64,000 nucleotides of DNA from Acidobacteriota bacterium (GTDB lineage Bacteria; Acidobacteriota; UBA6911; RPQK01; JAJDTT01): contig OZ242374.1 in assembly GCA_965209055.1 (NCBI GenBank), positions 3,840,001-3,904,000 of the forward strand, given 5' to 3'. The notes beneath the pieces are model-generated. The model saw only the letters and a list, made by a program, of their open reading frames with translations. It was not told the origin of the DNA and made no database searches. A program made the position numbers and the translations under genes. Numbering within the stretch: the stretch's first letter is position 1; every line of letters begins with the position of its first letter. Positions 6,470 through 59,950 of this stretch are shown here, one piece after another.

Positions 6470-6474
6470 CTCAG

Positions 6475-6735: not shown

Positions 6736-6760
6736 ACTGGACTGAATTGGAGGGAAACCC

Positions 6761-6997: not shown

Positions 6998-6998
6998 T

Positions 6999-8416: not shown

Positions 8417-8583
8417 GCGGACTGCGTTGCGATTCGGGCACATACTCCCGGTATGCACCCGAATCGCGCCTTGTCCGGCGGGCGCAGGAACGGTCTCGGT
8501 GCTCGCGGGACTTTCACCACGGACTGTTAAGATCGTCCACCCAGGGTCCGGTGCTCTGTTTGACTTTCACGACGGGCTGCTAG
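8417..8583. repeat. Hairpin plus two tandem IS-end-like motifs (possible MITE remnant)
   Basis: GCGATTCGGG (8429-8438)/CCCGAATCGC (8458-8467) stem. GACTTTCACCACGGACTGTTA (8509-8529) and GACTTTCACGACGGGCTGCTA (8562-8582). Confidence 0.45.
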
Positions 8584-8589
8584 AATGAC

Positions 8590-9582
8590 GTGCCCATGAG
8601 ACATCGAGCACGAATTGGATTTCTAGTGACCCTTGCCCTTTTGCTGGTGTTCTCGGCGCCGGCCTGCGGGCCGGCAACGGAAGAAGACGGCCGCATGAAG
8701 ATCGCCGGGATGTTCATGCAGGAGGACCAGTTTTTCCGTCTGGTCCGGTTCGGTATGCAGCAGGCCGCCAAGGAGGAGGGTGCCGAGCTGCTGCTCTCCA
8801 CCGTGGACGGCAAGCCGGAAAAGGAGCTCCAACTCGTCAACACCTACATCGCCCGGCAGGTGGATGCCATCGTCCTCTCGCCCCTGAGCGCCACCGCCTC
8901 GGTCACGGCTCTGCGGCGGGCCCACGACGCCGGCATCCAAGTCATCGCCTACAACTCCACTGTCGAGGGCGGAATCCCCGCCGCCTTCATCGAGAGCGAC
9001 CAGTCCAACCTGGGCTCCCAGACCGGTGATGCGGCCCGCACATACATCGAGGAGAAACTGGGCGGACAGGCCCAGATCGCCATTCTGGCCTTCAAGTCGG
9101 CGCTGACGGAGCAGAGCGAAGCCCGGACCAACGGTTTCAAGAGCCGGGTCACCGATCTGCCCGGAGTCGAGATCGTGGCCGAGCAGGATGCCTGGCTGCC
9201 GGAGATGGGTATCCGCAAGGCGGGCGACATCCTCACGGCCAATCCCGGGATCGACCTGATCTGGTGCGCCAACGAGGGGGGAACGGTGGGCGCCGTCATG
9301 GCGGTCAAGAGCGCCGGACGGGGAGGCGAGGTCGTCGTCTTCGGGACCGACGTGAGCGACCAGATGCTTGGTTTCCTCCTGGCGGAGGACCAGATTCTGC
9401 AGGCCGTCACCGGCCAGAAGCCCTTCGAAATCGGCTACCAGTCCGTCAAAGCGGCCGTCGCCGTGATCCAGGGGAGGGAAGTCGAGAGCCACGTCTCCAT
9501 GTCCGGGGTGTTGCTTGAGCGCAGGGATCTCGAGATCGTTCGCGCCTACCGGGCCCGGCTCCAGGAACTCATCGCCAACTAA
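8590..9582 (+). CDS. Sugar ABC transporter substrate-binding lipoprotein (RbsB-like)
   Basis: Signal peptide with lipobox APAC; periplasmic-binding-protein type I motifs (VDAIVLSP, IWCANEGG, VFGTD). Confidence 0.9.
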   Translation: MPMRHRARIGFLVTLALLLVFSAPACGPATEEDGRMKIAGMFMQEDQFFRLVRFGMQQAAKEEGAELLLSTVDGKPEKELQLVNTYIARQVDAIVLSPLSATASVTALRRAHDAGIQVIAYNSTVEGGIPAAFIESDQSNLGSQTGDAARTYIEEKLGGQAQIAILAFKSALTEQSEARTNGFKSRVTDLPGVEIVAEQDAWLPEMGIRKAGDILTANPGIDLIWCANEGGTVGAVMAVKSAGRGGEVVVFGTDVSDQMLGFLLAEDQILQAVTGQKPFEIGYQSVKAAVAVIQGREVESHVSMSGVLLERRDLEIVRAYRARLQELIAN

Positions 9583-9584
9583 CC

Positions 9585-11078
9585 GTGAATCCCGTCTCCA
9601 AGCCGATCCAGCTCGAAGCCCGCGGGATCCGGAAGGAATATCCGGGGACCGTCGCCCTCAAGGACGTCTCGGTCCGGTTCGAAGGGGGCAAGGTGCACGC
9701 GCTCATCGGCCGGAACGGCGCCGGGAAGAGCACCCTGGTCCGAATTTTGGCCGGCTCCACTCAACCCACTGCGGGCCAGGTCCTGCTTGACGGCGAACCC
9801 GTCGAGTTGAGATCGCCCGGCGACGCCTTCCAACGGGGGATCGCCACCGTCTACCAGGAGCTGAGCCTGGTGCCGGGGTTGAGCGTGGCCGAGAACATCC
9901 TCCTGGGACGGATGCCCCGAAACCGGGGTCCGTTCATCGACTGGGAGTCGGCCGCCGACCGGGCCCGCTCCGTGCTGGCCACCATGGACGTGGAGATGGA
10001 TGTTGACGAGCCGGTGGGCCGGTTGGGCTTCGCCCAGCAGCAGACGGTGGAGATCGCCAAGGCCATGTCCTTCCGGCCTTCGGTCCTGATGCTGGACGAG
10101 CCGACGTCGGGACTGGCGCGGCACGAAACCCGCAGCCTCTTTCGGCTCGTGCGCCAACTGGCGGAACAGGGAGTAGCCATCCTCTACATCTCCCACCGGC
10201 TCCAGGAGCTGAGGGAGATCGCCGACCGGGTCACCGTCCTTCGGGACGGCAATCACGTGGCGACAGTTGAGATGGAGGAAACCACGGACGGGGAGATCGT
10301 TCACTACATGTTCGGGGAGACCGTGCAGAAGGAGCGTCCCGCCGATCTCCTGGCCGGCCGGGAGCCGGTGCTGCAGGTTCGGGGACTGTCCCGGGGCGAG
10401 GAATTCCAGGACGTGAATCTGACCCTTCACCGGGGAGAGATCCTGGGGATCGCCGGCATGCTGGGATCGGGACGCACCGAGTTGCTCAAGTCGATCTTCG
10501 GAGCCCTGCCGTTCAATCATGGTGACATTCTCGTCTCCGAGAAGACTTACGAAAAAGTTTCTCCTTCCGAAATGAAGAATCTTGGTCTCGGGTTCGCCCC
10601 CGAGGACCGGAAACAGGAGGGACTGGTCCAGACCCAGAGCATCCGGTCCAACCTCTGCCTGGCCAGTCTGGACCGGATTTCGAGTCGGGGATTCCTGAAC
10701 CGGCGGCGGGAGCGGAGACTGATCCGGGAGCAGGTGGATCGCCTGCACATCAAGGCCCCCGACGTGGAGGAGGCCGTCTCCTCGCTCAGCGGAGGCAACC
10801 AACAGAAGGTTGTGGTGGGAAAGTGGCTCGGCACCTCATTGCAGGTGCTGCTCCTGGACGAGCCCACGCGCGGGATCGATCTCCAGGCCAAGCAGCAGAT
10901 CTTCCAATTGATGTGGGACCTGAGCCGCCAGGGGATCGCCGTACTGTTCGTCTCCAGCGAGCTTGAGGAACTGGTGGAGGTGTGCCACCGTATCCTGGTC
11001 ATGAAGCACGGCCGGATCGAGCAGGAAGTCCGGCCCGAAAACACCACCGCCGACCAACTCTTCGTCCAGTGCATGTAA
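9585..11078 (+). CDS. Sugar ABC transporter ATP-binding protein (RbsA-like, tandem ABC)
   Basis: GRNGAGKST, LDEPT twice, LSGGNQQKVV. Confidence 0.95.
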   Translation: MNPVSKPIQLEARGIRKEYPGTVALKDVSVRFEGGKVHALIGRNGAGKSTLVRILAGSTQPTAGQVLLDGEPVELRSPGDAFQRGIATVYQELSLVPGLSVAENILLGRMPRNRGPFIDWESAADRARSVLATMDVEMDVDEPVGRLGFAQQQTVEIAKAMSFRPSVLMLDEPTSGLARHETRSLFRLVRQLAEQGVAILYISHRLQELREIADRVTVLRDGNHVATVEMEETTDGEIVHYMFGETVQKERPADLLAGREPVLQVRGLSRGEEFQDVNLTLHRGEILGIAGMLGSGRTELLKSIFGALPFNHGDILVSEKTYEKVSPSEMKNLGLGFAPEDRKQEGLVQTQSIRSNLCLASLDRISSRGFLNRRRERRLIREQVDRLHIKAPDVEEAVSSLSGGNQQKVVVGKWLGTSLQVLLLDEPTRGIDLQAKQQIFQLMWDLSRQGIAVLFVSSELEELVEVCHRILVMKHGRIEQEVRPENTTADQLFVQCM

Positions 11079-43004: not shown

Positions 43005-43916
43005 TCACGGCGCAGAGCGCGGGGGGCTGTCCGAGAGTGTCCTCCGCACCCTGTCGTGGACACGGTAGCCGTAGAGCCGGGACAGGTGCCGCAGAAAGTT
43101 GAAGGGAGTCCGCCAGTTCAACTTGCTCTTTCCCCGGTGGCGGACGCCGAATCGGATCGGGACTTCCCGGACACGAAGCCGCCCCCGGGCCATCAGCTCA
43201 AGGGCAATCTTATAGCCGACGGGATGGAGATCCTCCAGATCGGGCAGGACCCGGCGATCGGTGGCGAAGAAGCCGGACAGGGGGTCGCGGCAATCGGCGA
43301 GCGGACACGCCATCAGTGTGCCGGCCCGGGACAGGAGCGCGCGGGCGCGGCTCCAGGCCGGGTCCATCCTCGCTTCAGGCGCGTAGCGGCTGCCGACGAC
43401 CATGTCGCAATCGGCGTCGAAGGCGGCCAGCAGGTCGATGATCTGTTCCGGCGGATGGGACAGGTCGGCGTCCATGACCACCAGCCGGTCGAAGCGCGCG
43501 AGCCGCATGCCTTCGAGCACCGAGAGGGACAAGTCCCGGGTCGCACCGCGGCGGGGCACCATCCGCACCGGCAAGCGGCCTCCCCACTCGGCGACGATCG
43601 CCTCGCTGCCGTCGTTCGAGTCGTCATCGACCAGGATCAACTCCCACTCGGCGGGCCAATGGGACAAAGCGGCGGATACGCGGCGGACCAGGGTCGGGAT
43701 ATTGGCGGCCTCCCGAAACGTCGGCACGACGATGGACACCGGGTTGTGCCCAGGAGGCGATGGGTCGCTCAAGGTCGACAAACTTTCTTGACCGGCGGAG
43801 GGCGGCATTCCGAAGTCTGGAGCTGGTTCCGACGTCAACTCGGGGTTCGTCCTCGGGCTTGCGCTGTGCCCGCACACGGCTTCCGAATGCGTGCGCATCA
43901 CCCGCGACTTCGGCAC
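43005..43916 (-). CDS. Polyprenol-monophosphomannose synthase (GT2, DPM1-like)
   Basis: SIVVPTFRE, VDDDSNDGS, VMDADLSHPP, VGSRY, DPLSGFF, GYKIALE, R..GKSKL; true start uncertain. Confidence 0.88.
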   Translation of the reverse strand: MPKSRVMRTHSEAVCGHSASPRTNPELTSEPAPDFGMPPSAGQESLSTLSDPSPPGHNPVSIVVPTFREAANIPTLVRRVSAALSHWPAEWELILVDDDSNDGSEAIVAEWGGRLPVRMVPRRGATRDLSLSVLEGMRLARFDRLVVMDADLSHPPEQIIDLLAAFDADCDMVVGSRYAPEARMDPAWSRARALLSRAGTLMACPLADCRDPLSGFFATDRRVLPDLEDLHPVGYKIALELMARGRLRVREVPIRFGVRHRGKSKLNWRTPFNFLRHLSRLYGYRVHDRVRRTLSDSPPRSAP

Positions 43917-43984
43917 CGGCTTCTAACGGCTCGGTGCGCCCAACGGGAGGCTTGGGATTGTCGATGTACGAGACGCGAGCCAGT

Positions 43985-45739
43985 CTATCTGTCCACCGGC
44001 ACCACCGGCAGCGTGGTGAAGACGCCGTTCGTGACGTCCATCTCTACGGCCACGCCGGTGAAATCCTGCTGTCCTGCCGACGCCGTACAACGGACCGAAC
44101 CAGTGAAGTCCGACGTGTCGTGGTCGAACAATTCATCGATGAACATGGCGTCCTGACCATTGGCCGGCAGAGTTACCGGCTTCATTTCGATCATCTCGCC
44201 ACCCATCATCAACCGGCAGCTCAACTCCAGCTCAGACTCGCTCAGGTTTCGGAGAGCCGCTCCCGTGTTGACGCCGCCGGCTTGGCGGCGTACAGGGATG
44301 ATGGCGTCGCGGAGCGGCTGGCTGGATCCCACGCCGGCCACGCCGACGCCCGGAAAATCAAAGCGCAGGACCCCTCCAATGGGGCTGTCAAGACCTTCGG
44401 TGACGACTTTCACCGAACCGGTCACGAGGTCTCCCACGCCGTTGGTCGAAATGGTGACTTCTCCCAGGGACGGCAATTCGGACTGGAGGGTGAGAGCGCC
44501 GAAGTCCGTGGCTTGCAGGTGATCCATGACGTCCACCAGCGATTCCGGATCGATGAGTTCGCCTGACGTGTCATAGAAAAAGACGAGGGGTTGAATCGGC
44601 GTAGCGGCCAGGTTCACCAACACCACATCGGAACTGAAGGAGTCCCCGTTGCCGAAATGGGCGAAGTCCAGGGCCATCTGACGGTCCTTGTAGAAACCGG
44701 AGCCGACGATGAAGGATCGTCTTGTCGGCTCGGACCCAGGATGTTCGACGGTAAACGAAATCGCACGGGCGTAGGTCACCTTGGGTATTTCGGCGCTGTC
44801 GGTGTCGTCATTGGGATCGTCGAAATGGTACTCGACGTAGCCGCCCTCCGCGTTTTGGGTCGCCACCTCGATAATCTGGGGCAGGATCAGCTCTCCGGTG
44901 ACAGCGTCTCTGAGGACGTCGGTGGGGGCTTGAAGCTCGTATCTCTCCGGAAACGCTCCGTGAAAGAGCGTGAACCCGCTTCCATCCATGATGAACAGGT
45001 AGACGGGGCCTGCTCTCCAGGGTCCGTCCGGAATCCGGAGAATTCTCTTGATTTTTACGAAAGCGTCGCGGCCTTCTTCCCTGTAGAGTCCGACGATGTA
45101 GCGCAGCGTCCCGTTCACGAAGGCCTTCAGAGTTTCGCGTTCCAACACGTCATGGGCCGTAACTGCAAGAACGTCGCCGGGGTCTATGTCCTCCTCCACC
45201 AAGTGGGATTCCTGAAGATCGAAGCCGGCGACCAGGATGGCCGGGAGACCGTCAAAACCCATGTGACCCGAGGCGTAACCGTCGGCGCTTGCCGCTTCCG
45301 CCATAAATGGGCCGCCGAGTTCTGAGGACTTGGCCGCTTCGGTGATCTGCGCGAAAATATCGGAGTCGAGCAGCCCGCCCGACAGGAGCACGTCCTCGCC
45401 GTGTACCGCTACCCTGCCATTAGGGGTCAGGACAATCAGGTAGGTGGACCCGGACAGGAAAGGGCCCTCATGGGTCATAAGACATCCGAGATACCCCGTT
45501 GCGTTGGGCAATCGCAGGACACTCGCGCTGTATTCTCGAAACCCCTGCACGAGTGCCGACAGGGTCGCATCGCCGCTCTCCACCTAGGCAGCGGTGACCA
45601 GCCCCTCGGGCAGGGCCGGAAGTGCGGACGGTCTCGGACAGGCCTCCTGCGACTGCGCAAGTGCGAGGTGCGCGACGGGGAAAACTCCGGCCAGTCCCAT
45701 CACAAAACATAAGCCAACCGTCAATCTAATCGTCTTCAT
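43985..45739 (-). pseudogene. Secreted Cache-domain-like protein with one in-frame TAG (codon 52)
   Basis: AGGAG RBS, ATG 45739 and signal peptide. TAG at 45584-45586 is in frame with the 43985..45583 ORF. Cache-like VYLFIMD..FHGA..GGYVEY.F..PKVTYA..IVGSGFY. Confidence 0.7.
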
Positions 45740-45855
45740 ACCGGTTTCTCCTGCTTTAGCGAGTCCACACTGGAAGTTACGGGTCGTACTGTTATCCCAT
45801 GTTCGCTCCGGGGTTTCCACCGTAGGGGGGAGGCAACGCGGATCTTGCTTGGAAT

Positions 45856-47370
45856 TCACCGAAAATTCACCGAGAAGAGATCGGCGTCCTTCATCACCAG
45901 GCGCAGCCGCACCGGTTTGCCCGAGATTCGCTTCAAAGGCTCATCCGACATGGCGCCGGAGTGGGACCGTTTCCAACGGACCGTGTGCTCGATCTCGTCG
46001 CCCCAGACCAGCGGCGATTCCTCCAGAGCGAAGCCGGGAAGCGGCCGTCCGGCTTCGTCCTGAACCTCGATCCGGATGCTTCCCGCCGCGGAAGTGGCGA
46101 AGTTGAGCGTCAGGTTGCTCCCCTGGAAGGTCAGGGGCTTGGTCAACACTTCGCCTCCGCGGTAGCCGGCGTTGAGCGAGACGAACCCGTCGGTTCTCAG
46201 GACCATCCGCTCCATGTGAATGCTGGGGAACATGTAGTGGCGGATCACGTAGAGAGAGATTTCATCGTCTCCGGTAGAGACGACTCCGGTGGCCGTTGCG
46301 TTGGTGCGGTTGCCCCAATTCCTCTTCTCGCGTCCGGGCCGAATAAAGGATTGGGGAAACCGGCGGTCCCAGTTCAGGCCGTCTCGGCTGGTCATGAACA
46401 CGGTGTCGGAGGCTCCGTTTGCGGGCGCATCGGCAAACCGGGTCCGCCAGGGGACGAAGCGCTTGGGGAAGCCCAGGAAAATGTGGGGCGCCCGGAAGTA
46501 CGGCGTGATTCCGTTGGTGTAGAAATGGTCCCGGGGACCGTCTCCCAGGTCGATGTCTTCCAATTCGCTCCAGTTCAGGAAATCGGGGGAAGTGGCCCGG
46601 CCGATGGCCCGGATCGTGGGCATCCGCCGCTCTCCGGACCCGGTGTGACGGGGTGGATACCAGACTCGGAGATAGGCGACGTACTCGTTCCTGTACCCGT
46701 CCCAAAGGATCTCGTCGCCACCCCAATCCGTTGGAGGCTGGGTGAGGATCGGTTCCTCGCGGATCGGTTTCCAGTGGATGCCGTCGGGAGAAACCATTCC
46801 CACGATACGTTTCAAGGGGCGGTTCGGGTGTCCCGAGGCCAGCGCCTTGTACCGTTCCTCGGGGGGAGTTTTGGGATTGGTGTCGAGAAACACCATGAAA
46901 TTGTGGTTGCCGAAGCCGTCCCAGATGATGTTGTTCTCCTTCGACCCGCCAAACTCCACCAGCCCCAGTGACGGCTTGGTCCAGTTCCGGCCGTCCCGGC
47001 TCTCGGCGTAGCAGGTGACCTCGGGATGTTCCGGGATCATGGTCTCACCCGGTTCAAGGAGGGATGGAACCGCGTAGGAGGGATCGCTGTGGCCCCGGTA
47101 GTACAGGCGGTAGAGACCGTCTGCGTGGACGACCGAGACATAGGAACAGGTCGTGCCTTCCCATGGCTGGTCGAGGTCGAGCACCTTACCGCCGGAGGTG
47201 GGCGTTTGGAGTTCCAGCCGGACGTCCCCGGTCATGGTGTCGATCAAGTAGTCGTCCACCATGAGTTCCAGCCGGTCGCCGATGTCCAGAGCTTGGGGCT
47301 TGTGGTGACTGCCGGCAGCCGGCGCCGGTGTCGCGAACAGCAAAACCGCGAGCAGACTTGATCTCGTCAT
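45856..47370 (-). CDS. Exported five-bladed beta-propeller glycosidase-like protein (paralog 1)
   Basis: Signal peptide; PWEG, YAESRDG..WTKP.LG, SPDGIHW, TSRDGLNW, LRTDGFVS; near-identical to 56334-57854. Confidence 0.75.
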   Translation of the reverse strand: MTRSSLLAVLLFATPAPAAGSHHKPQALDIGDRLELMVDDYLIDTMTGDVRLELQTPTSGGKVLDLDQPWEGTTCSYVSVVHADGLYRLYYRGHSDPSYAVPSLLEPGETMIPEHPEVTCYAESRDGRNWTKPSLGLVEFGGSKENNIIWDGFGNHNFMVFLDTNPKTPPEERYKALASGHPNRPLKRIVGMVSPDGIHWKPIREEPILTQPPTDWGGDEILWDGYRNEYVAYLRVWYPPRHTGSGERRMPTIRAIGRATSPDFLNWSELEDIDLGDGPRDHFYTNGITPYFRAPHIFLGFPKRFVPWRTRFADAPANGASDTVFMTSRDGLNWDRRFPQSFIRPGREKRNWGNRTNATATGVVSTGDDEISLYVIRHYMFPSIHMERMVLRTDGFVSLNAGYRGGEVLTKPLTFQGSNLTLNFATSAAGSIRIEVQDEAGRPLPGFALEESPLVWGDEIEHTVRWKRSHSGAMSDEPLKRISGKPVRLRLVMKDADLFSVNFR

Positions 47371-47536
47371 TCCGATCCTCCGTGCGCCCCGTGGCCGAAA
47401 ATGGACGGCGAGTCTATCCAGGCAGGAATCCCGGGTCAAAATAGGACCCCTTGGAGTCGGTTGGGGGACATCGTCGAAATTATATTCTCACTCCGCCGGG
47501 CAGAAGGGCGAAGAAGGGAGAGAGAGGCGAGAAGAT

Positions 47537-47558
47537 AAAGGGACAGTCCCGTTCTCCG
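47537..47558 (+). repeat. 22-bp palindromic module-boundary site S1
   Basis: AAAGGGACAGTCCCGTTCTCCG; 20/22 identical to 48491-48512. Confidence 0.75.
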
Positions 47559-47634
47559 AGATCTCGGCTTACGCACAGAACGCCACACCCCCGGGAGGAC
47601 GCCTACCCTCGCGGCGACCCGGTCGTAGCGGGCT

Positions 47635-48465
47635 TCAACCGACACGCAGCACGAGGAACTCGTAGCCGTAGAACTCCGAGTAGGCATGCCAGATGTCTAT
47701 TTCGTGTTGGCACAGGTCCGCCAGCTCTTGTGCATCCGGCGCGTCGCGATGACGCTTGCGGAATGCAGTTACGTTGTCTTGCAGAGGCCGATAGTAGTCG
47801 TCCCACCACGCCGATGCGGGGAGCGGAAAGTGCCCCACGGCCTCGTAGCCGCATGCCTCGACGGCTTCCAGGAGTGCGGAGATTTCTCGGATCGCCGGGT
47901 ACTCCCGCTTCCAGAACGCGACGCATTCGGCGGGCGGTTGGGGCTTCCGCCAGCACACCTCGGTCAGCGCGACGTGCCCGTTGGGCCGCACCAGCCGGCG
48001 CCAGGCGCGCAGACCCGCTTCGACGCCCATGATGTTGATGGCGCCTTCGCACCAGATCAGGTCGAACGAACCGTCGGCAAAGTCGAGTCGGTACATGTCC
48101 GCCACGCGGGCATCCAGTCGATCCGCGATGCCCAGTTCATTGGCCTTTCTGTTCAATGCGTCGATGAACGGGGGGTGGTTGTCGACGGCGACGATGCGCA
48201 ACGGTGAACTCTCCGCCAGCACCAGAGTCTGGGCGCCGGTCCCGGAGCCGATGTCGAGCACGCGCGTCCGCGGCCCGACGCCTGGCACGAGCCCGAGGGC
48301 CCGACGCGTGCTCGCTGTGTTTCCCGGTCCCTGCCGGGGCAACCCACTGAACAACTCGAAGAACAGCGCGGTGGCTCGATCCGGCGGCGTGGCCGCTCCT
48401 GTCGATTGTGTTCGAGACGGGCGGACCGAGGCGGAAGCGGCGGCGGTTCTGGCTGCAACATCCAT
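47635..48465 (-). CDS. Class I SAM-dependent methyltransferase
   Basis: LPRQGPG, VLDIGSGTG, FDLIWCEGA; start placed at ATG 48465. Confidence 0.92.
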   Translation of the reverse strand: MDVAARTAAASASVRPSRTQSTGAATPPDRATALFFELFSGLPRQGPGNTASTRRALGLVPGVGPRTRVLDIGSGTGAQTLVLAESSPLRIVAVDNHPPFIDALNRKANELGIADRLDARVADMYRLDFADGSFDLIWCEGAINIMGVEAGLRAWRRLVRPNGHVALTEVCWRKPQPPAECVAFWKREYPAIREISALLEAVEACGYEAVGHFPLPASAWWDDYYRPLQDNVTAFRKRHRDAPDAQELADLCQHEIDIWHAYSEFYGYEFLVLRVG

Positions 48466-48490
48466 TCCCTCATTATCGTGCAATGAAAAG

Positions 48491-48512
48491 AAAGGGACAG
48501 TTCCATTCTCCG
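48491..48512 (+). repeat. 22-bp palindromic module-boundary site S2
   Basis: AAAGGGACAGTTCCATTCTCCG. Confidence 0.75.
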
Positions 48513-48621
48513 CGGAGCTTGTGCTGCAGGTATAAGGCATCGATGAGCGAAGGGAGTGTGCGGTCCATGCGAATCCACTGCCGGATTCAAATTCGGGGGG
48601 CCCCTGGAGCCGGTGTATTAT

Positions 48622-48644
48622 GTGACTATGGTCGTGACTATGGT
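48622..48644 (+). promoter_or_regulatory. Putative TA operator (tandem GTGACTATGGT x2)
   Basis: 11-bp direct repeat at 48622-48632 and 48634-48644, upstream of the antitoxin gene. Confidence 0.55.
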
Positions 48645-48679
48645 TATGTCCTGGACTGCACGAGGAAGGGTGTGAAGCC

Positions 48680-48964
48680 ATGACAGTTACCGAACGAGGC
48701 GGAGCGAGTGAATCCCGCACCATCAAGGCGTCCGAGTTCAAGGCAAAGTGCCTCAGGCTGATGGACGAAGTGGCAGAGAGCGGAGAAGAGATCGTGATCA
48801 CCAAAAACGGCCGCCCAACCGCGCGCCTCCTGCCCTACCGCAAGCGGTTCGGGGATTGGTTCGGGGCCGATCGAGACAGGATCGAAATCATCGGCGACAT
48901 CATCTCCCCGATCAACCTGGAGTGGGAAGCCGAGGTGAACCCCGACCGGATGGCCAATCCGTGA
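48680..48964 (+). CDS. Phd/YefM-family antitoxin
   Basis: IKASEFKAKCLRLMDEV..GEEIVITKNGRPTARL. Confidence 0.93.
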   Translation: MTVTERGGASESRTIKASEFKAKCLRLMDEVAESGEEIVITKNGRPTARLLPYRKRFGDWFGADRDRIEIIGDIISPINLEWEAEVNPDRMANP

Positions 48965-49359
48965 TACTGGTGGACACGCACGTACTGTTGTGGTCGAGAC
49001 TTGGCGGACGGCAAATCGGGCCTCGTTCCAGACGGCTGATGGAACGGGGACTACGGGAAGCCGCGCTGGCGGCGTCGGCGTTTTCGTTCTGGGAGGTGGC
49101 TCTGTTGCACGCGAAGGGGCGCATCCGCCTGCTGGAGGACATCAGAAACTGGAGAACCCGGCTTCTCCAGGATGGTCTCGTCGAGATTCCGGTAGACGGC
49201 GACATTGCCATCCGCGCCAACAGCCTGGAGAACTTCCAGGGGGATCCAGCCGACCGCATCATCGTCGCGACTGCCCTGGGGGGGCACAGTCTGCTCACGG
49301 CCGATGAGCGCATCCTGAACTGGAGCGGCCACCTTCGCCGCGACGACGCGAGAGCGTAA
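48961..49359 (+). CDS. vapC: PIN-domain toxin VapC
   Basis: GTG start overlapping the antitoxin stop; ILVDTHVLLW, SFWEV, GDPADRIIVATA, LLTAD. Confidence 0.93.
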   Translation: MILVDTHVLLWSRLGGRQIGPRSRRLMERGLREAALAASAFSFWEVALLHAKGRIRLLEDIRNWRTRLLQDGLVEIPVDGDIAIRANSLENFQGDPADRIIVATALGGHSLLTADERILNWSGHLRRDDARA

Positions 49360-49381
49360 TAAGGGAAAGATCCATTTTCTG
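49360..49381 (+). repeat. 22-bp module-boundary site S3
   Basis: TAAGGGAAAGATCCATTTTCTG; 17/22 to S2; begins at the base after the vapC stop codon. Confidence 0.6.
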
Positions 49382-49440
49382 CCTGTATCTTGGGTATTGA
49401 AGTTTCAGCCTGAGATTCGATCGATCACGAAAGGGACGCC

Positions 49441-50676
49441 ATGACCTGGAAGAATTTCTCCCGTCGGCAATTCGCGAAACGCTTGACCGTTTTGGGAGCG
49501 CTGCCGCTGAGCGCCCGCCGCCTGTCGGCGGTTCCGGAAGTGGCTCCTTTGAAACCTCCTGCTCCTCCTGAAGTCAAGTCCTACCCGGGAATCCTCAGGC
49601 ACAGAGTGGTCTTTTGGGACCCTTACGGGTACTCGGCCTGGCCGACCATCCTGAAGTGCCGGGACGGGGAAATGCTGATCGCGTTCTGCGAAGCCATGCG
49701 CCGGAACGCCCGATTGACCCACGCGGATCCCTCGTTGTACGGCATGATCATCCGCTCCGGCGATCAGGGAGAAACTTGGTCTGAGCACCCCGAAGTCATC
49801 GGCGGCTACGAGCACTACGGAATGGATGATCCGGGCATCATGCAGTTGTCCGACGGAAGGATCCTGGTCAACGCCTTCCGCCGTTCCTTTGCCCCGGCGG
49901 CCTCGGTAGACAGCAGAACGGATGTTCGCTTGACTCGGGTGGAGCCATATCAGTGGGCGACCGGCTACAGCGACGAGATGACCTATGTCTTCCACTCGTT
50001 GGACAATGCCCGCACCTGGTTGGAGCCGGTCCACGTGGACGTCTCTCCCTTCAAATCAGGATGTCAGCTCCGGGCGATCGTCGAACTGCCGGACGGAATT
50101 CTGCTTCTGCCGTGCTACGAGGAGTTCGGTCACCCATCGACTTCGAAACTGGCGATGACCTGGACCGCCTATGTCCTGCGATCTCGTGATCGGGGGAGGA
50201 GTTGGGGCGAGCCGTCCGTGATTGGGGAACAGGGGGTTCACGGCATCGGCTACAACGAGCCGGCCCTGATTCACCTGCCCAGCGGCCGGATGATCGCTCT
50301 TCTCAGAACGGGGCCGGCCGGATGGCTCTACCAGAGCGATTCGGACGATCGGGGACGAACCTGGAGCACACCGGCCAAGACCCCGATGTGGGGGTATCCG
50401 GCCCATCTCCGGCAGCTCCGGGATGGGAGGCTTCTGGCCACCTACGGCCACCGGCGAAAGCCCTTCGGAATCCGGGCCTGTCTGAGTTCGGATGAGGGTA
50501 GAAGCTGGGACATCGAGAGAGAGATCGTGCTCCGGGATGATCTCAGGAACCGGGATCTGGGGTATCCGACCACCACAGAGTCGGATGACGGCACCCTGCT
50601 GACCGCCTACTACGGAAGGGACGAGAACAACGACGTGACCTGCATTCAGATCACGTCCTGGAAAGTAGCCTCTTGA
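49441..50676 (+). CDS. Tat-exported sialidase/BNR-repeat protein
   Basis: SRRQF Tat motif; Asp-boxes SGDQGETW, SLDNARTW, SRDRGRSW, SDDRGRTW, SSDEGRSW. Confidence 0.88.
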   Translation: MTWKNFSRRQFAKRLTVLGALPLSARRLSAVPEVAPLKPPAPPEVKSYPGILRHRVVFWDPYGYSAWPTILKCRDGEMLIAFCEAMRRNARLTHADPSLYGMIIRSGDQGETWSEHPEVIGGYEHYGMDDPGIMQLSDGRILVNAFRRSFAPAASVDSRTDVRLTRVEPYQWATGYSDEMTYVFHSLDNARTWLEPVHVDVSPFKSGCQLRAIVELPDGILLLPCYEEFGHPSTSKLAMTWTAYVLRSRDRGRSWGEPSVIGEQGVHGIGYNEPALIHLPSGRMIALLRTGPAGWLYQSDSDDRGRTWSTPAKTPMWGYPAHLRQLRDGRLLATYGHRRKPFGIRACLSSDEGRSWDIEREIVLRDDLRNRDLGYPTTTESDDGTLLTAYYGRDENNDVTCIQITSWKVAS

Positions 50677-52019
50677 CGGAGATATTGCGGAGGGATCTGG
50701 GCGAAGGGCTGACCCTGAGGCAGGCCACCGCGGAGGATACTGACGCCGCTGCGGAGTTCCAGGCCCAGGTCCACCTTCCCCACACGTTTGCCGAGTCATT
50801 CAGAATCTGGACCCGGGACCTGATGAGCGGAGCCCTCCCGGGATTCCAGCCCGGCGACTTCACCGTGGTGGAAGACACGAGGTCCGGGGCCATCGTGTCG
50901 ATGCTGAACCTGATTCCGCAAACCTGGTCCTATGGCGGCATGGAAATAGGGGTTGGCCGTATCGAGCTAGTGTCCACGCATCCCGACTATCGAAGGCGCG
51001 GTCTGGTGCGGGCTCAGATGGACGCGGTCTATGAGATGAGTGCGGGGCGCGGCGAGAAGATGCAGGTGATCAGCGGCATCCCCTGGTTCTATCGCCAGTT
51101 CGGCTACGAGATGGCGCTGGAGTTCGGGATGGGGTACTCGTGCCCCGTCTCCAATTGGCCCGCACTCGGCGATGCCGTCCGGGAGCCTTGCACGGTACGC
51201 CCCGCGGCCGAAGGGGACCTGCCATTCATGGCCCGCTTGTACGACGCGGCCATGGGGCGCTACCTGGTCTCTTGCGTCCGCGGCGAGAGGCTGTGGAGGT
51301 ACGAGCTGAACGGGCGGAGCGGGAACACCTATTCCGAGTTGGAGATTTGCGTCGTGGAAGCCGCGACCGGTGAGCCGGTGGGACTCATTGTGCACATCCG
51401 GGGTCTTTGGGACGGTGAACCCTGCGTTATTCTCTACGAGTTGAAGGAAGGCGTCTCCTGGCGCGAGGTCACTCCCGGCGTCGTGAGGCATCTCTGGAGG
51501 ATGGGCGAGGCGTACAGCGCGCGGCAGGCTCGACGCGCGTTTCGAAACGTGGCGTTCGAGCTGGGTACGGAACACCCGGCGTATGAGGTGATGCACGACC
51601 GGTCGCCGCGTATGAAGCGGATACGCGCATGGTATGTCCGGGTGCCCGACATTGCCGGATTCCTGCGGCACGTCATGCCGGTCTTGGAACGGCGGTTGGC
51701 GGATTCGGCGGCGGCGGGTTACGGCGGCCGGCTCACGATCGGCTTCGTCGATCACGGAGTGGACCTGTTGTTCGACAACGGGCGTGTGGCAGAGGTCGAG
51801 AGATTGGCCCGGCCGCGGAAGGGCGGCAACTGGCTGAATTCCGGGACCTGCGACGCCTTCTTCCCCGGGCTGGTTTTCTTGCAGTTGCTCTTCGGGTTCC
51901 GCGCCGCGGATGAACTCCAGTACGCCATTCCCGACTGCGATATCGGGTCCCCGGAGACGCGCAGTTTGCTCAATGCCTTGTTTCCCAAACTGCCGTCGCA
52001 CGTCTGGGGTGTCTGGTGA
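50673..52019 (+). CDS. GNAT-family N-acetyltransferase (Eis-like architecture)
   Basis: VSTHPDYRRRGLVR acetyl-CoA motif; GIPWFYRQFGYE. Confidence 0.85.
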   Translation: MTEILRRDLGEGLTLRQATAEDTDAAAEFQAQVHLPHTFAESFRIWTRDLMSGALPGFQPGDFTVVEDTRSGAIVSMLNLIPQTWSYGGMEIGVGRIELVSTHPDYRRRGLVRAQMDAVYEMSAGRGEKMQVISGIPWFYRQFGYEMALEFGMGYSCPVSNWPALGDAVREPCTVRPAAEGDLPFMARLYDAAMGRYLVSCVRGERLWRYELNGRSGNTYSELEICVVEAATGEPVGLIVHIRGLWDGEPCVILYELKEGVSWREVTPGVVRHLWRMGEAYSARQARRAFRNVAFELGTEHPAYEVMHDRSPRMKRIRAWYVRVPDIAGFLRHVMPVLERRLADSAAAGYGGRLTIGFVDHGVDLLFDNGRVAEVERLARPRKGGNWLNSGTCDAFFPGLVFLQLLFGFRAADELQYAIPDCDIGSPETRSLLNALFPKLPSHVWGVW

Positions 52020-52198
52020 GTATGGACCCAATTGTCAGTTTTCCGCCTCGCCGCTGGAGCGGCGTATATTGGAGATCCGTCACCCGTGAAAACGTGCGAA
52101 ACTTTCGCCTTTTTCGGAGTACTTCCGTTAGTTTGAGTTAACGGGCATTACCCCGAGGGGGAGCTGGTCGAGCTTGGATTCCCCCGCCATGGAGTGTG

Positions 52199-52237
52199 AA
52201 TATCCACTTGCAACACTACATGTTGCAAGTGGATATT
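52199..52237. promoter_or_regulatory. Perfect 17-bp inverted repeat, putative HigA operator/promoter
   Basis: AATATCCACTTGCAACA-CTACA-TGTTGCAAGTGGATATT, 9 nt upstream of the higA ATG. Confidence 0.7.
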
Positions 52238-52246
52238 ATTTCAGTC

Positions 52247-52516
52247 ATGCCCATGTACGACCCGCCACACCCAGGCGAGATGATCCGAAACATTCTGGAA
52301 GACAGAGAGGTTGGCTGGACTGTAACGGAGTGTGCCCGGCGGCTCGACGTAGCGCGGAACACATTATCACGGTTGCTCAATGGCCGTATCGGAATCTCGC
52401 CAAGAATGGCGTTGGCATTGGAAAGAATCGGTTGGAGCAACGCGGATCACTGGATGCGGCTTCAAGCGGCCTACGACTTGGCGCAAGAGAGGCGCAAGAA
52501 TGCAGATCCCGCGTGA
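52247..52516 (+). CDS. higA: HigA-family antitoxin (no cognate toxin)
   Basis: MYDPPHPGE..TLSRLLNGRIGISPRMALAL..WMRLQAAYDL. Confidence 0.92.
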   Translation: MPMYDPPHPGEMIRNILEDREVGWTVTECARRLDVARNTLSRLLNGRIGISPRMALALERIGWSNADHWMRLQAAYDLAQERRKNADPA

Positions 52517-52702
52517 GATGGAGCCTACCGAAGGGGAATCAGGAGCTGGCTACAGGGTGCTGTTCTGGCTGGCCAATTTCTGGACGAGTTCCCCGACATC
52601 ATGCCCACCAACCAGGGCATCGCGGCACGGAGCCATTACTCCGCCGCACCGGTCCGCCGCCATGCTGTTGTCTTGAACCGTCCTTTTCCTCAAGGATCGT
52701 GA

Positions 52703-53707
52703 TCAGCCGCAGTAGGCGCTCCCGGCATCATGGTGTGCGGCGAGTGAAGCGCACATGCAGGCTAGCCGGCGGCGCAGGGTGGCCGGTTTCTCCACCGTGA
52801 CGCTGTCGCCCCAAGTGAAGAGATGCCAGCACATCTCGTCGAGGCCACCGGCCTCGAAACGCACCGTGAGCGAGCCGTCAGGGTTCTTGGTGAGGGACTG
52901 GCCGGGATGGAACAGGAACGTGCCTGCATCGCCGGCTACACCGGCCTCGAATCGCAGGACCGTCTCGACCCGTGGTTCCTGGAACACACCAAATGAACGC
53001 TCCGCGAAGCGCTGCAGATCGAACGCCGGGTCGCGCTCGAACGTTTCGTTGGAAGCGCAGGCCTCACTTATGTTCACGAGCCGCCAAAGCCGCATACCGT
53101 CCGCCCATTTTGTCCGCGCGACCAGGAATGCCCGGTTTCCGTAGAGTACGCCGTAGGGCTGGACGCGCTGCGAGCTGCGCCGCCCCGTTGACCGGGAGAT
53201 GTACTCAAAATCCACCGTGCGTCTCGTCGTGATGGCATCCCGCAGCAAAGAGAGCAGGCCTTTTTCGAGCTGCTGTCTGGGCCCCGGGCGCATGGCGAGC
53301 CCCTCAACCTGCATGAGAGCCCCCAGAATGGCATCGGACTCCCCCTCAGCGGCGGGACGCCGCAGGGCGCGGAGCTTGCCCGCCAGTTCCTGGAGCACGA
53401 TGGCCCGTTCGGCCGGACCGGTCCGGTCCAAACTCTTGGCGGCAGACTCAACTTCCGCCAACTCCTCGGGGTTGATTCGGATAAACGGACGGACGGCGGC
53501 AGATCGGAGCTGCCAGTGGTGCCGCCTGTCGTCACGGTCCACCCTCTGTAGCGGACCAAAAGCTGCCTCGACTGCATCGCGCATCCGTTCCGCCGTACGG
53601 CGGCTGACGCCGAACTCCTCGCAGATATCGTCCAGCGTCAATCCGCTCAACGTTCCCTGGAGCCGAATCGCCAAGCGCACGATGTCAGTAACCCGTTGGT
53701 AGCGCAT
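52703..53707 (-). CDS. HTH-WYL-WCX transcriptional regulator
   Basis: N-terminal wHTH (FGVSRRTAERMRDAV); WYL core VQPYGVLYGNRAFLVA..LWRLVNI; FDLQRFAERSFGVF; WCX tail. Confidence 0.92.
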   Translation of the reverse strand: MRYQRVTDIVRLAIRLQGTLSGLTLDDICEEFGVSRRTAERMRDAVEAAFGPLQRVDRDDRRHHWQLRSAAVRPFIRINPEELAEVESAAKSLDRTGPAERAIVLQELAGKLRALRRPAAEGESDAILGALMQVEGLAMRPGPRQQLEKGLLSLLRDAITTRRTVDFEYISRSTGRRSSQRVQPYGVLYGNRAFLVARTKWADGMRLWRLVNISEACASNETFERDPAFDLQRFAERSFGVFQEPRVETVLRFEAGVAGDAGTFLFHPGQSLTKNPDGSLTVRFEAGGLDEMCWHLFTWGDSVTVEKPATLRRRLACMCASLAAHHDAGSAYCG

Positions 53708-53805
53708 TCCGTCATTTCCTCCCAGGTCGCTGCTTGATTATGGCACCTGCGCCGGAATGCCGGCTTGTATTCGGGAAGCGAATTTTTTTCAGTATTGCCT
53801 AATTG

Positions 53806-56333: not shown

Positions 56334-57854
56334 TCACCGAAAACGTAGCGAAAACAGGTCGGCGTCCTTCATCACCAGCCGCAGCCGGACCGGTTTGCCC
56401 GCGATCCGCTTCAGCGGCTCGTCCGTCGTTGCCCCGGAGTGGGAACGTTTCCAGCGCACCGTCTGCTCGATCTCGTCTCCCCAGACCAGCGGGGATTCCT
56501 CCAGAGCGAAGCCGGGAAGCGGCCGTCCCGCTTCGTCCTGGATCTCGATGTGGATGCTTCCCGCCGCCGACGTGGCGTAGTTGAGCACCAGGTTGCTCCC
56601 CTCAAAGGTCAGCGGCTTGGTCACCACCTCGCCTCCGCGATAGCCGGCGTTGAGCGAGACGAACCCGTCGGTTCTCAGGACCATCCGCTCCATGTGAATG
56701 GTGGGGAACTTGTAGTGGCGGAGCACGTAGAGGGAGATCTCGTCATTTCCGGTGGAAACCACTCCGGTGGCCGTCATGTTGGTGCGGTTGTACCAGTTCC
56801 TCTTCTCGCGTCCGGGCCGAATGAAGGCTTGAGGGAACCTGCGGTCCCAGTTCAGACCGTCGCGGCTGGTCATGAACACCGTCTCGGAAACCCCGTTCTC
56901 GGGCGCGTCGGGAATCCGGGTCCGCCAGGGAACGAAACGCTTGGGAAAGCCCAGGAAGATGTGGAGCGCCCGGAAGTAGGGCGTGATTCCGTTGGTGTAG
57001 AATTGGTCCCGCGGCCCCTCCCCCAGCTTGATGTCCTCCAGCTTGCTCCAGTTCAGGAAATCGGGCGAGGTGGCCCGGGCGACGGCCCGGATTGTGGGCA
57101 TCCGGCGCTCGCCGGAGCCGGTGTGGCGGGGTGGATACCAGACCCGGAGGTAAGCGACGTACTCATTCCGGAACCCGTCCCAGAAGATCTCGTCTCCTCC
57201 CCAGTCCGTGGGAGGCTGCGTCAGGATGGCCTCTTCACGGATGGGCTTCCAGTGGATCCCGTCGGGCGAAACCATCCCGACCATGCGTTTCAAAGGGGTG
57301 TTGGGTTGTCCTGACGCCAACGCCTTGTACCTTTCCTCGGGAGGAGTCTTGGGATTGGTGTCCAGGAAGACCATGAAGTTGTGATTGCCGAACCGGTCCC
57401 AGATGATGTTGTTCTGTTTCGACCCGTTGAATTCCACCAGGCCCAGCGCGGGCTTGGTCCAGGTCCGGCCGTCCCGGCTCTCGGCGTAGCAGGTGACTTC
57501 GGGATGTTCGGGGACCATGGTCTCCCCCGGTTCCAGAAGGGACGGGGCTGCGGATCTCGTGAGGCTGTGGCCCCGGTAATAGATGCGATAGAGGCCGTCG
57601 CCGTGAACGACCGAGGTGTAGAAGCAGGTCGTGCCCTCCCACGGCTTGTCGAAGTCGAGCACCTTTCCGCCGGAGGTGGGAGTCTGGAGCTCCAGCCGGA
57701 CGTCCCCCGTCATGGAGTCGATCAAGTAGTCGTCCACCATGAGTTCCAAGCGGTCTCCGACGTCCAGGGGTTTGGCCTTGTGATCGCCGCCGGCGGCCAA
57801 CGGTGGGGTCGTGAACAACAAAGCCGCGAGCAGAGTTGCTCTCATCATCTGCAT
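56334..57854 (-). CDS. Exported five-bladed beta-propeller glycosidase-like protein (paralog 2)
   Basis: Colinear, highly similar paralog of 45856-47370; AGGAG RBS before ATG 57854. Confidence 0.75.
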   Translation of the reverse strand: MQMMRATLLAALLFTTPPLAAGGDHKAKPLDVGDRLELMVDDYLIDSMTGDVRLELQTPTSGGKVLDFDKPWEGTTCFYTSVVHGDGLYRIYYRGHSLTRSAAPSLLEPGETMVPEHPEVTCYAESRDGRTWTKPALGLVEFNGSKQNNIIWDRFGNHNFMVFLDTNPKTPPEERYKALASGQPNTPLKRMVGMVSPDGIHWKPIREEAILTQPPTDWGGDEIFWDGFRNEYVAYLRVWYPPRHTGSGERRMPTIRAVARATSPDFLNWSKLEDIKLGEGPRDQFYTNGITPYFRALHIFLGFPKRFVPWRTRIPDAPENGVSETVFMTSRDGLNWDRRFPQAFIRPGREKRNWYNRTNMTATGVVSTGNDEISLYVLRHYKFPTIHMERMVLRTDGFVSLNAGYRGGEVVTKPLTFEGSNLVLNYATSAAGSIHIEIQDEAGRPLPGFALEESPLVWGDEIEQTVRWKRSHSGATTDEPLKRIAGKPVRLRLVMKDADLFSLRFR

Positions 57855-58033
57855 TCTCCTTGCGCCCCTGTCAGGAACGGAGAGCGAGTCTATCCATCCG
57901 GCCTCCACTGGTCAAAATGGGACGAACGGGCGTTCTTGAATTGGCGGAGTCGGCGAAGGAAACTGAACCAGTTCAGGCCGTACACTGGCGCATGATGCCG
58001 TGCAGCCAATCTTGGCCGCGGAGGTCGTTCGGG

Positions 58034-59950
58034 ATGAAGTGGAATCGGAAGAACCTGACCTGGATCGCCGCCCCGTTTCTGGCAGCGGCATGTGCCAGCG
58101 CCGGGTTCGCCCTCCAACCTCAATCCGAATCTGGAGCCGACGAAGGCAAGGCGTCGGAACCCTACCGGGTCGGGGGAAAACGGGACGGTCCCAGTTTCTT
58201 CCCCCGGGTCCACTACCCGGAAGTGAAGCCTCTGAAGGTAGGGGAACTGGACTTCCGGCACTATCCCACCTATGGCGAGATTCACGGGTTCCTCCGGAAG
58301 TGGTCTCGCGAGTATCCGCAGATATTGGAACTCTACTCGGTGGGCCGGAGCTTCGAGGGACGGGAGATCTGGCAGGTGACCGTCACCAACCGGGAGACGG
58401 GCAAGGATACGGACAAGCCGGCCATGTTCGCCGAGGGTGGGCGTCATTCGGGTGAGACCGCCAGCTCGGTCTCCATCGTCCAGCTCATTCACCAGTTGGT
58501 GACCGGGTATGGGAGAGATCCCGAGATCACGCACCTGGTGAATACCAAGGCCTTCTACCTGCGCCCGGTGAACAATCCCGATGGCACCGAGCTCTTCCTG
58601 AACACGGCCCAGACCAATCGCAGCTCGGTCCGTCCCCACGACACGGACGGGGACGGCCTCCTGGATGAGGATCCGGGCGAGGACCTGGACGGCGACGGCC
58701 TCCTGCTGCAGATGCGCCGTCACGTGGGAGAAGGGAAGGGAAACGCCATCCGGGACCCAAGAGATCCGGACCGGCTCATGAAGACGGTGCCCGAGGGGGA
58801 GGGGGACTGGCAGGTCGACCCGGAAGGCGTGGACAACGACGGGGACGGCAAGTTCAACGAGGACGGGATCGGCGGGCTCGACCTGCACCGAAACTACCCG
58901 GAGAACTGGCGGCCCGAACCGGGACGGGACGCCACGGAGCGGGGATTCACCCAGGTAGGAGCGGGCGAATACCCGCTGTCCGAGCCGGAGACGCGGGCGG
59001 TGGTCCTCTTCCTGCTGACCCATCCCAACGTGGCCATCGGCCAGTCCATGGACACGCCCATGGCCATGCACCTGCGCCCGCCCTCCACCAGCCGCAGCCA
59101 GGAGAGCATGGCCTCTGAGGACCTCAAGTGGTACGTCTACCTCGACAAGCAGGCGAAGGCGATTTCCGGGTACCCCTGGGCCGGCGACGTCTACGAGGAC
59201 TACAGGAACGTCCATCCCTTCCACGTCATCACCGGGGAACCGAGCCGGCCCATCCCCCTGTTCGGCCACGGGCCCGACTTTGGATATTCCTACTTCGGCT
59301 CCATCTGGTACAACGACGAGCTCTGGCACATCGGCCGGCAGGAGGACTACGACGGGGACGGCAGGCTGGACGACTATGACGCCCTGGTCTGGAATGACCG
59401 GGAGCGCGGCGGCAAGGAGTTCATCCCCTGGAAGAAGATCCCGCATCCCCAGTTGGAGGAGGTGGAGATCGGCGGGTTTACGCCCAAGTTCGCCTTTTGG
59501 AATCCACCCGTGGACCTGCTCGAGGAGTGGGCCAGCAAGAGCACCCGGTTCAATCTGTTCCTGGCCAAGCAGCTGCCGCAGGTCCGGATCTCACGGGTCC
59601 GGGTGAGGCCACTGGCTCCCGGGGACTATTCCATCGAGCTCACCTACCGCAACGTGGGCCATCTCCCCACGGCCCTGGTCCAGGCGCGGCTCGTCAAGAT
59701 CGTGAAACCGGACACGGCCCGGATCGAGTTCGACGACGAGCTTGTGGAGAGCGGCCGGGTGCAGGTCCTGGAGCCGTCGCTCCGCAGCAAGGACATCGAA
59801 GCGGGTTGGCTGGACCCGGCGGAGAACCGGACCGTGGCCTGGAGGGTCCGGCTGAAGGACGTCGAGTCGGTCGAGGCGAAGGTCTCCATTCACTCCACCC
59901 GGGGCGGCGTGGACCGGCGCCGGGTGAGGATTCCGGCGGGGGTTGAATGA
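58034..59950 (+). CDS. M14 zinc metallocarboxypeptidase, exported
   Basis: GRSFEGREIW, GGRHSGE, NNPDG, DLHRNY, GEYPLSEPETRAV; DxDGDG Ca-binding repeats. Confidence 0.9.
   Translation: MKWNRKNLTWIAAPFLAAACASAGFALQPQSESGADEGKASEPYRVGGKRDGPSFFPRVHYPEVKPLKVGELDFRHYPTYGEIHGFLRKWSREYPQILELYSVGRSFEGREIWQVTVTNRETGKDTDKPAMFAEGGRHSGETASSVSIVQLIHQLVTGYGRDPEITHLVNTKAFYLRPVNNPDGTELFLNTAQTNRSSVRPHDTDGDGLLDEDPGEDLDGDGLLLQMRRHVGEGKGNAIRDPRDPDRLMKTVPEGEGDWQVDPEGVDNDGDGKFNEDGIGGLDLHRNYPENWRPEPGRDATERGFTQVGAGEYPLSEPETRAVVLFLLTHPNVAIGQSMDTPMAMHLRPPSTSRSQESMASEDLKWYVYLDKQAKAISGYPWAGDVYEDYRNVHPFHVITGEPSRPIPLFGHGPDFGYSYFGSIWYNDELWHIGRQEDYDGDGRLDDYDALVWNDRERGGKEFIPWKKIPHPQLEEVEIGGFTPKFAFWNPPVDLLEEWASKSTRFNLFLAKQLPQVRISRVRVRPLAPGDYSIELTYRNVGHLPTALVQARLVKIVKPDTARIEFDDELVESGRVQVLEPSLRSKDIEAGWLDPAENRTVAWRVRLKDVESVEAKVSIHSTRGGVDRRRVRIPAGVE

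Follow-up and report, generated by a model that had tools for sequence, protein, structure and literature searches.

What are the three short palindromic sites that part gene modules in this 64,000-nucleotide stretch of DNA (the window; contig OZ242374.1) from an uncultured Acidobacteriota bacterium? The sites, called S1, S2 and S3, lie in one orientation, and the initial annotation read them as recombination sites of an uncharacterised, integron-like system of gene-cassette capture. Taken as a whole, the statement that they are repetitive extragenic palindromic (REP)-type repeats of a RAYT (REP-associated tyrosine transposase)/TIRYT system with HUH/Y1 transposases is one that we make with good confidence. 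The window sits in a single 6.08-Mb contig of 62.8% G+C. The genome analysed is denoted G000, and the congeners used for comparison G001 to G008.

Site coordinates, sequences and spacings (954 and 869 bp) were confirmed on the sequence. The methyltransferase ATG is 25 nt from S2, which lies upstream of it, and S3 as annotated begins at the base after the PIN stop. Window copies were scored with the matrix of the repeat family to which they belong, here named REP1, and were also matched with strict and loose patterns against 100 shuffles. The positions scored are:

47534..47556, plus strand: S1, REP1 copy (score 19.4), between the methyltransferase stop and the region upstream of the minus-strand gene at 45856-47370.
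48488..48510, plus strand: S2, REP1 copy (score 18.8), in the divergent methyltransferase/vapB spacer.
49357..49379, plus strand: S3, decayed REP1 copy (score 5.5), directly 3′ of the PIN/vapC stop.
58176..58198, no strand assigned: further REP1 copy (score 14.1), about 250 nt from the start of the paralog at 56334-57923.
52021..52048, plus strand: fourth candidate (best score -0.9), not a family member.

A weak REP1 copy (score 9.8) is also found in the window at 63898, and the arrangement at 58176, with a REP1 copy near the paralog start, recurs in G006.

Allowing up to three mismatches, the strict S1/S2 pattern matched S1 and S2 only, where 0.00 matches were expected from the shuffles. These two sites are real and far beyond chance. 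A loose core that also covers S3 gave three matches in the window against 0.78 expected, and three of the 100 shuffles attained three, so S3 by itself is not beyond chance. Scores of at least 5, the range of S3, occur at 814 positions in the genome and 306 in the reversed genome. S3 is nevertheless a true but decayed copy, because the orthologous position in G001 scores 13.6 and a stretch of about 105 bp missing in G000 and G008 begins inside S3. The picture of three sites thus holds outright for S1 and S2, and for S3 only with help from relatives; that of repeated, same-orientation elements at module borders is borne out. The candidate at 52021, which had been thought to close a sialidase and GNAT module, was rejected on its score of -0.9, and no site lies at the sialidase/GNAT junction. 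G005 has a real REP1 copy about 45 nt past its GNAT stop, which is not alignable with the stretch at 52021.

Relaxed to five mismatches, S1 matched 64 places in the genome, many with the core GGGGACAGTC and symmetric flanks. Counted on both strands, the 9-mer GGGACAGTC is found 186 times where about 75 would be expected, and its flanks make a dyad. The family was collected with an iterated, symmetrised scoring matrix at a cut-off score of 11. Sites at or above this score number 149 in the genome and 2 in the reversed genome. REP1 is a 23-bp imperfect palindrome, GARAAGGGGAC-A-GTC(A/T/C)C-N-TTCTC, with the nearly invariant core GGGGACAG. Oriented by its central base, the consensus GAGAAGGGGAC-A-GTC(A/T/C)C-N-TTCTC has one strong and one degenerate arm.

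Genes were predicted with a rough caller of our own (4,575 genes, 86% coding). REP1 is intergenic at 126 of its 149 sites, and intergenic DNA makes up about 14% of the genome. Intergenic copies lie in divergent (40), convergent (32) and co-directional (54) spacers, which roughly tracks the amounts of such spacers and argues against a promoter, operator or terminator as their common role. Copies are single, paired 25–60 bp apart or arrayed, the largest array packing 12 into about 530 bp. Of the spacings between neighbours, 50% are below 6 kb, versus 10% under a Poisson model. Of 46 neighbour pairs 300–6000 bp apart, which are not independent of one another, 33 have both copies in one orientation. 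A second palindromic family, GGCGGTT-N3-5-AACCGCC, has 201 copies in the genome and 0 in the reversed genome; 189 are intergenic and often tandem, and one lies in the window at 24559. It is less clustered than REP1 (27% of spacings below 6 kb), and only 4 of the 149 REP1 sites have a copy within 300 nt.

A Pfam Y1_Tnp search of the genome matched two places, one of them between REP1 clusters. Five transposase genes, encoding proteins of 311–328 aa, were mapped in G000, and a sixth copy was found by protein search. All five mapped genes have REP1 on both sides, and the repeats are inverted, reading ...ACAGT... to one side of the gene and ...ACTGT... to the other. The proteins score 27.9–37.6 bits against Y1_Tnp (cut-off 23). 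REP_Tyr_transpos is the best NCBIfam family for all five (E 2.5e-12 to 4.6e-15) and the sole family listed for four. Its alignment covers nearly the full model in four proteins (from 3–6 to 145 of 146) and 71–145 in the fifth. The five are 71–99% identical to one another and hold the Y1 core within roughly their first 180 residues. All carry an unchanged NHYH; YVELNA, also conserved, ends in NA and not NP, and motif roles were read off the alignment. DNA likeness between gene copies extends over about 1,050 bp, comprising the gene and about 90 nt upstream, and ends before the repeat arrays.

Close homologs number 3–12 per genome within the genus. Across the genus, REP1 lies within 500 bp at 58 of 59 homologous loci and on both sides at 47, mostly inverted, with the core mostly ...ACAGT... 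upstream and ...ACTGT... downstream. The lone locus without REP1 encodes a 29%-identical protein from another phylum. It had been noted that no recombinase adjoins the sites; this is true of the window, but six cognate Y1 genes lie elsewhere in the genome. The suggestion of a HUH/Y1 enzyme acting in trans is borne out as regards an associated protein, given six RAYT-like genes flanked by REP1, and this gene family co-occurs with the repeat across the genomes compared.

Each of the genus's nine genomes has 21–62 matches to the REP1 pattern, and 32 other genomes of the order have 0–4. The backwards pattern, used as a control, has 0–2 per genome. G016 enters these tallies only, with one weak protein match and no pattern match, and no conclusion here depends on it. 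REP1 is thus confined to one genus of uncultured Acidobacteriota. Single repeats differ in presence and absence among congeners, and the unit that moves or is lost is about 40–100 nt. Parts of window positions 45800-52100 (a share of 0.2–0.3 of sampled words) recur in public runs of several studies labelled sponge metagenome, which fits a sponge-associated lineage.

Likeness to known transposase classes was judged by motifs, lengths and published descriptions. REP/RAYT systems (REPtron, REPIN) of Escherichia, Pseudomonas and Stenotrophomonas likewise have a short, abundant, extragenic imperfect palindrome that is single, paired or clustered, a cognate HUH/Y1 gene flanked by an inverted repeat and a restriction to narrow lineages. 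Unlike them, REP1 has no GTAG or GT[AG]G foot and a weak stem, its copies are strongly clustered in islands, and the transposase is about twice as long (311–328 aa) and present in 3–12 copies per genome. The missing foot, the weak hairpins and the long, multi-copy protein are departures from the classic type that all fit TIRYT/TIRtron.

TIRYTs, as set out by Di Nocera et al. (2013, PMC3733652), are tyrosine transposases with inverted repeats on their two sides, and GGGGWSAS is common to these repeats. Di Nocera et al. describe a sharply defined Acidobacteria group, and also moderately abundant repeat families in some species, as dimers or clusters. Most TIRYTs belong to TnpA-Y1 subclass 2.1 in the account of the subclasses by Quentin et al. 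(2018, PMC6006769). That account gives subclasses 2.1 and 2.3 the motifs NH[YF]H or NHYH and YIELNP or YVDLNP, with lengths up to 325 aa, and describes the offshoot 2.3 by NHYH and YVDLNP, a median length of 325 aa and 3.9 gene copies in each genome; it reports no REP-like sequences near genes of either subclass (PMC6006769). The system described here shares with TIRYT/TIRtron the long RAYT-like proteins, extended at the C-terminus beyond the Y1 core, and the inverted flanking repeats, and GGGGACAG matches the GGGG[AT][CG]A[CG] motif. Its NHYH and YV(E/D)LN motifs, its protein length near 325 aa and its multiple gene copies in each genome agree with subclass 2.3. The system departs from these descriptions in that the flanking repeat is itself palindromic and dispersed in about 150 copies, and in that the tyrosine motif ends in NA, not NP. 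By these features its nearest counterpart appears to be the TIRYT/TIRtron class, which had been described in Acidobacteria before, so the label of an uncharacterised system does not hold. IS200/IS605 elements belong to the same superfamily (Pfam Y1_Tnp), and likewise have short hairpin-prone recognition elements and non-autonomous derivatives. They differ in having Y---Q and not the class-2 (RAYT) tyrosine motif, and two same-orientation subterminal hairpins and not inverted arrays round the gene; here, moreover, homology between gene copies runs over about 1,050 bp and ends before the arrays.

The modules parted by S1, S2 and S3 and their neighbours in the window are:

45856..47370, minus strand: 504-aa secreted-looking protein, no Pfam match.
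47635..48465, minus strand: SAM-dependent methyltransferase (Pfam Methyltransf_25/11, E 2.5e-17), the S1-S2 module.
48680..49359, plus strand: PhdYeFM antitoxin and PIN toxin, a vapBC-like pair (PF02604, PF01850), the S2-S3 module.
49441..52019, plus strand: BNR sialidase-like gene and GNAT gene (Pfam), joined without a repeat.

The reading that each interval holds one module, a minus-strand methyltransferase and then a plus-strand vapBC, was confirmed by Pfam. Of the relatives listed in the block maps, G001 and G008 alone have the methyltransferase, and the vapBC-like pair occurs in other contexts in G002, G003, G004, G006 and G007. Sialidase and GNAT genes are separate modules in G002–G007. 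The sialidase lies at another locus in these genomes and is flanked by REP1 in three of them.

Some features of these modules stand apart from REP1. Upstream of vapB, at 48622-48645, a direct repeat of an 11–12-nt unit is kept in all congeners, with a third unit in G001; it is probably the antitoxin operator. The BNR sialidase-like gene (stretch 49382-50689) is found in four contexts among congeners, and G001 has two copies. Its 5′ boundary, 59 nt upstream of the ATG, is nucleotide-identical in all four contexts, and its 3′ boundary is 7–16 nt past the stop. The protein at 45856-47370 has paralogs at 85% identity within the locus and in relatives. The paralogs at 56334-57923 and 45856-47439 encode proteins of 504–527 aa with 85% DNA identity and no Pfam family, and further paralogs and truncated pieces are found at the same locus in congeners. 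These paralogs could drive homologous rearrangements by themselves.

Gene-content differences between congeners are often at or beside REP1. G001 and G008 (92–95% identical) keep the window gene order, with S1 conserved in both. Their small differences include an extra REP1 between two genes where G000 has none. G008 also has a 159-nt insert with inverted ends about 26 nt after its S2 ortholog, with ATAA on both sides; it is absent in G000 and G001 and looks like a small miniature inverted-repeat transposable element. Window genes are reordered, reoriented and in part truncated in G002–G007, and REP1 is found at most junctions. At S2, G007 keeps the orthologous repeat (score 14.3) and the whole vapB side, and unrelated DNA replaces the methyltransferase side. 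At S1, G005 has a GNAT gene instead of the methyltransferase on the far side. The PIN stop followed directly by REP1 is kept in G000, G001, G006, G007 and G008; G002, G003 and G004 have it in decayed form. The DNA beyond this REP1 differs among congeners. As had been predicted, breakpoints in relatives thus map to the sites, with one side of S1, S2 and S3 differing and the other conserved. REP1 lies at about -190, -150, -110 and -85 nt from the vapB start in four genomes, as read off the sequences. Contigs of four public runs, aligned to 43900-53800, gave short fragments only, none of them informative about excision or circles. A low-depth contig of run X23 skips 47461-47538 and ends beside S1; it was not counted as evidence.

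Such breakpoints raise the strongest alternative, that REP1 is a true cassette boundary and that Y1 enzymes or catalysed REP x REP exchange excise, insert or swap operon-sized accessory modules (toxin–antitoxin pairs, methyltransferases, secreted hydrolase-like genes) with one repeat each. A 20-kb island at 2.05 Mb supplies evidence for it. This island holds HigB/HigA, PIN, ParE/HTH and MazE/MazF pairs and a methyltransferase gene, with REP1 in nearly every inter-operon spacer. Between G000 and G001, insertions, deletions or replacements of 0.5–2.6 kb fall in 8 of its 10 REP1-bearing spacers, as against none of the five REP1-free spacers of at least 60 nt, by our own count. One slot of the island has been found in three or four states with exactly conserved flanks. 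G000 has REP-HigBA-REP, G001 a larger REP-bounded insert with further repeats, G005 a single REP that the alignments of both flanks share over 26 nt, and G002 two REPs 14 nt apart with nothing between. Across six genomes, 27 partly redundant empty-versus-filled events were collected; a repeat marks the empty site in 21 of them, 12 of which also have one at both insert edges. Block ends also fall on repeat edges in two further islands, G000 and G007 break at the S2 repeat, and the repeats of an array tend to share orientation.

The same comparisons hold much that speaks against a cassette boundary. Positions of the junctions relative to the repeats are not fixed, and truncated genes abut repeats, which indicates imprecise events. 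A higA homolog stands elsewhere in a longer conserved context; in the island its cut, exact to the nucleotide, lies beside the repeat, and at one G005 locus the higA partner gene is truncated exactly at the repeat. Although 45% of block ends lie within 60 nt of REP1, against 8% for random positions, about half of the island intergenic space lies within that distance by our estimate; with repeats so dense, the figure is barely above the intergenic null and is weak evidence. Counted by the side of the oriented repeat on which the break lies, the 2.05-Mb island gives 45 against 16 and the window locus 3 against 6, so the trends run in opposite directions. These counts are confounded by gene spacing, and nothing is drawn from them. 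Modules also move without REP1, as at the sialidase/GNAT junction and in L044, a 20-kb REP1-free control locus that is not clean, since the second repeat family is found at one block boundary. Of 50 PIN, ParE and PemK toxin genes, 6 have REP1 no more than 1 kb away, an enrichment (P = 0.004) given that 3.1% of the genome lies so close, yet most are not near a copy.

Duplicates within G000 (at least 400 bp, at least 93% identity) end within 40 nt of REP1 in only 7 of 475 pairs, and four of the seven are transposase genes. Apart from the transposase genes, a 658-bp pair and a 9.7-kb pair, no recent copies of REP1-bounded modules were found in G000. G000 therefore gives no sign that repeat-bounded modules moved recently. 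An inverted duplicate of 9.66 kb (1-9658 versus 632634-642277, 97.2% identity) has one end 6 nt from the REP1 copy at 9664. In another REP1 island, 1.2 kb at 3228331-3229538 (L012 8332-9539) matches a distant place in G001 at 97% identity, where 85–93% is usual, which hints at a recent transfer or a mobile element.

A true cassette boundary is, on balance, improbable in our view. Given the variable distance between repeat and module, the lack of recent duplication and the presence of repeats in tandem, round the transposase genes and in all spacer types, the cassette-capture system first proposed is not supported. The HigBA slot is the best lead for testing a possible, though improbable, active shuffling of modules by REP1 and its enzymes. 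If that were the case, REP-HigBA-REP, the single REP and the empty double-REP slot would be a snapshot of a cassette cycle, and the system would be a single-strand, HUH-based counterpart of integron cassettes or pdif modules in symbiont Acidobacteriota. Keyword searches of the literature found no paper on REP-bounded toxin–antitoxin arrays, which does not prove that none exists.

The preferred reading, a REP-type family with its Y1 transposases, would account for the turnover in another way. TnpA-REP of E. coli reportedly cuts and rejoins single-stranded DNA at its repeat. By analogy, the Y1 enzymes would cut and rejoin single-stranded DNA at REP1 and so spread REP1 in trans. Only inter-operon spacers would retain copies, above all those of dispensable islands with many toxin–antitoxin and methyltransferase genes. 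On this view, the deletions, replacements and insertions seen at repeat edges would be by-products, and not the work of a dedicated cassette-capture machine. They may arise by REP x REP exchange, by one-ended events or when foreign DNA lands beside a repeat.

Several points weigh against the RAYT/TIRYT identification and the by-product mechanism. Over 135 oriented copies, the 15 nt on either side of the 23-mer hold no conserved base and no GTAG or GT[AG]G foot. As single strands, the window copies fold at -5.3, -4.0 and -1.6 kcal/mol, with z-scores of -0.40 to +0.48 and no T-run, and given this weak folding the hairpin recognition typical of REPs is unproven. The five transposases reach 46.9–55.8 bits against REP_Tyr_transpos, below its cut-off of 80 bits. 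A phmmer search against PDB chains gave chance matches only (E 0.17) and no relative of solved structure, and an AlphaFold2 model from a five-sequence alignment was unusable, with a mean predicted local distance difference test score of 36.8. Three of the six G000 gene copies are 95–97% identical in DNA. RAYTs are typically single-copy according to a published study (PMC5581495), so that six copies, three of them near-identical, resemble an active insertion sequence. The by-product mechanism by itself also leaves unexplained the shared orientation of neighbouring repeats (33 of 46 pairs) and the repeats on both edges of 12 of the 27 indels.

Could the palindromes instead be operators of a dimeric transcription factor, forming a regulon, or transcription terminators? 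The near-perfect dyad would suit such a role, and S1, S2 and S3 each lie upstream of some gene. Neither function fits all copies, however, as 32 are in convergent and 40 in divergent spacers, and tandem arrays reach 12 copies within 530 bp. Restriction to one genus and insertion polymorphisms do not suit operators or terminators either; the hairpins are weak and have no T-run, and an Rfam scan of 47300-49600 matched no family. Operator, promoter and terminator readings were rejected because of the spread over spacer types and the tandem arrays, and the operator or terminator explanation is left with very little probability.

An integron-like array, with attC-type sites and an integron integrase or as a CALIN remnant, is the least probable explanation of all and was rejected because of the integrase search and the architecture of the site, even though same-orientation sites here part single, often promoterless or toxin–antitoxin modules whose content varies among relatives, as in chromosomal integrons. 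No protein in the genome passed the cut-off of the TIGR02249 integron integrase profile (best match 78.8 bits, cut-off 265). An attC site consists of R''-L''...L'-R' boxes over 55–140 bp with a variable centre. REP1 has 23 bp, a conserved centre and no R or L boxes, and it flanks genes of Y1/HUH transposases and not of integrases or other tyrosine recombinases.

The pdif sites of Acinetobacter are XerC/XerD sites with two arms round a 6-bp spacer, and pdif modules of Acinetobacter plasmids are likewise small, often of toxin–antitoxin type, bounded by short dyad sites and found in varied contexts. The arms of REP1 are parted by one central base, unlike the two arms round a 6–8-bp spacer of Xer/dif sites, and its link is to a Y1 transposase. 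The statement that the sites are neither attC nor dif was therefore correct. A tyrosine-recombinase family with frames of about 380–560 aa occupies 26 places in G000 (e.g., 3141214-3141885 and 1143945-1144616) and probably explains most of the 330 duplicate pairs of 1.0–1.25 kb. Two copies adjoin Y1-transposase loci and the others are far from REP1; with only 2 of 26 places within about 1 kb of a repeat, this family was rejected as the REP1 partner.

As REP-type repeats with their transposases, the sites in this window represent a new, genus-specific REP family in uncultured Acidobacteriota, ordinary in kind. Proteins of the TIRYT/subclass 2.1–2.3 type, reported without REP-like partners or a known role, are here found with a palindromic partner of about 150 copies. 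REP1 and its Y1 protein offer a tractable pair for biochemistry. Several congeneric genomes are complete and show modules gained, lost and replaced at repeat edges. What REPs do for or to their hosts has long been a question, and these genomes could show whether the turnover of accessory genes is driven by REP/RAYT elements.

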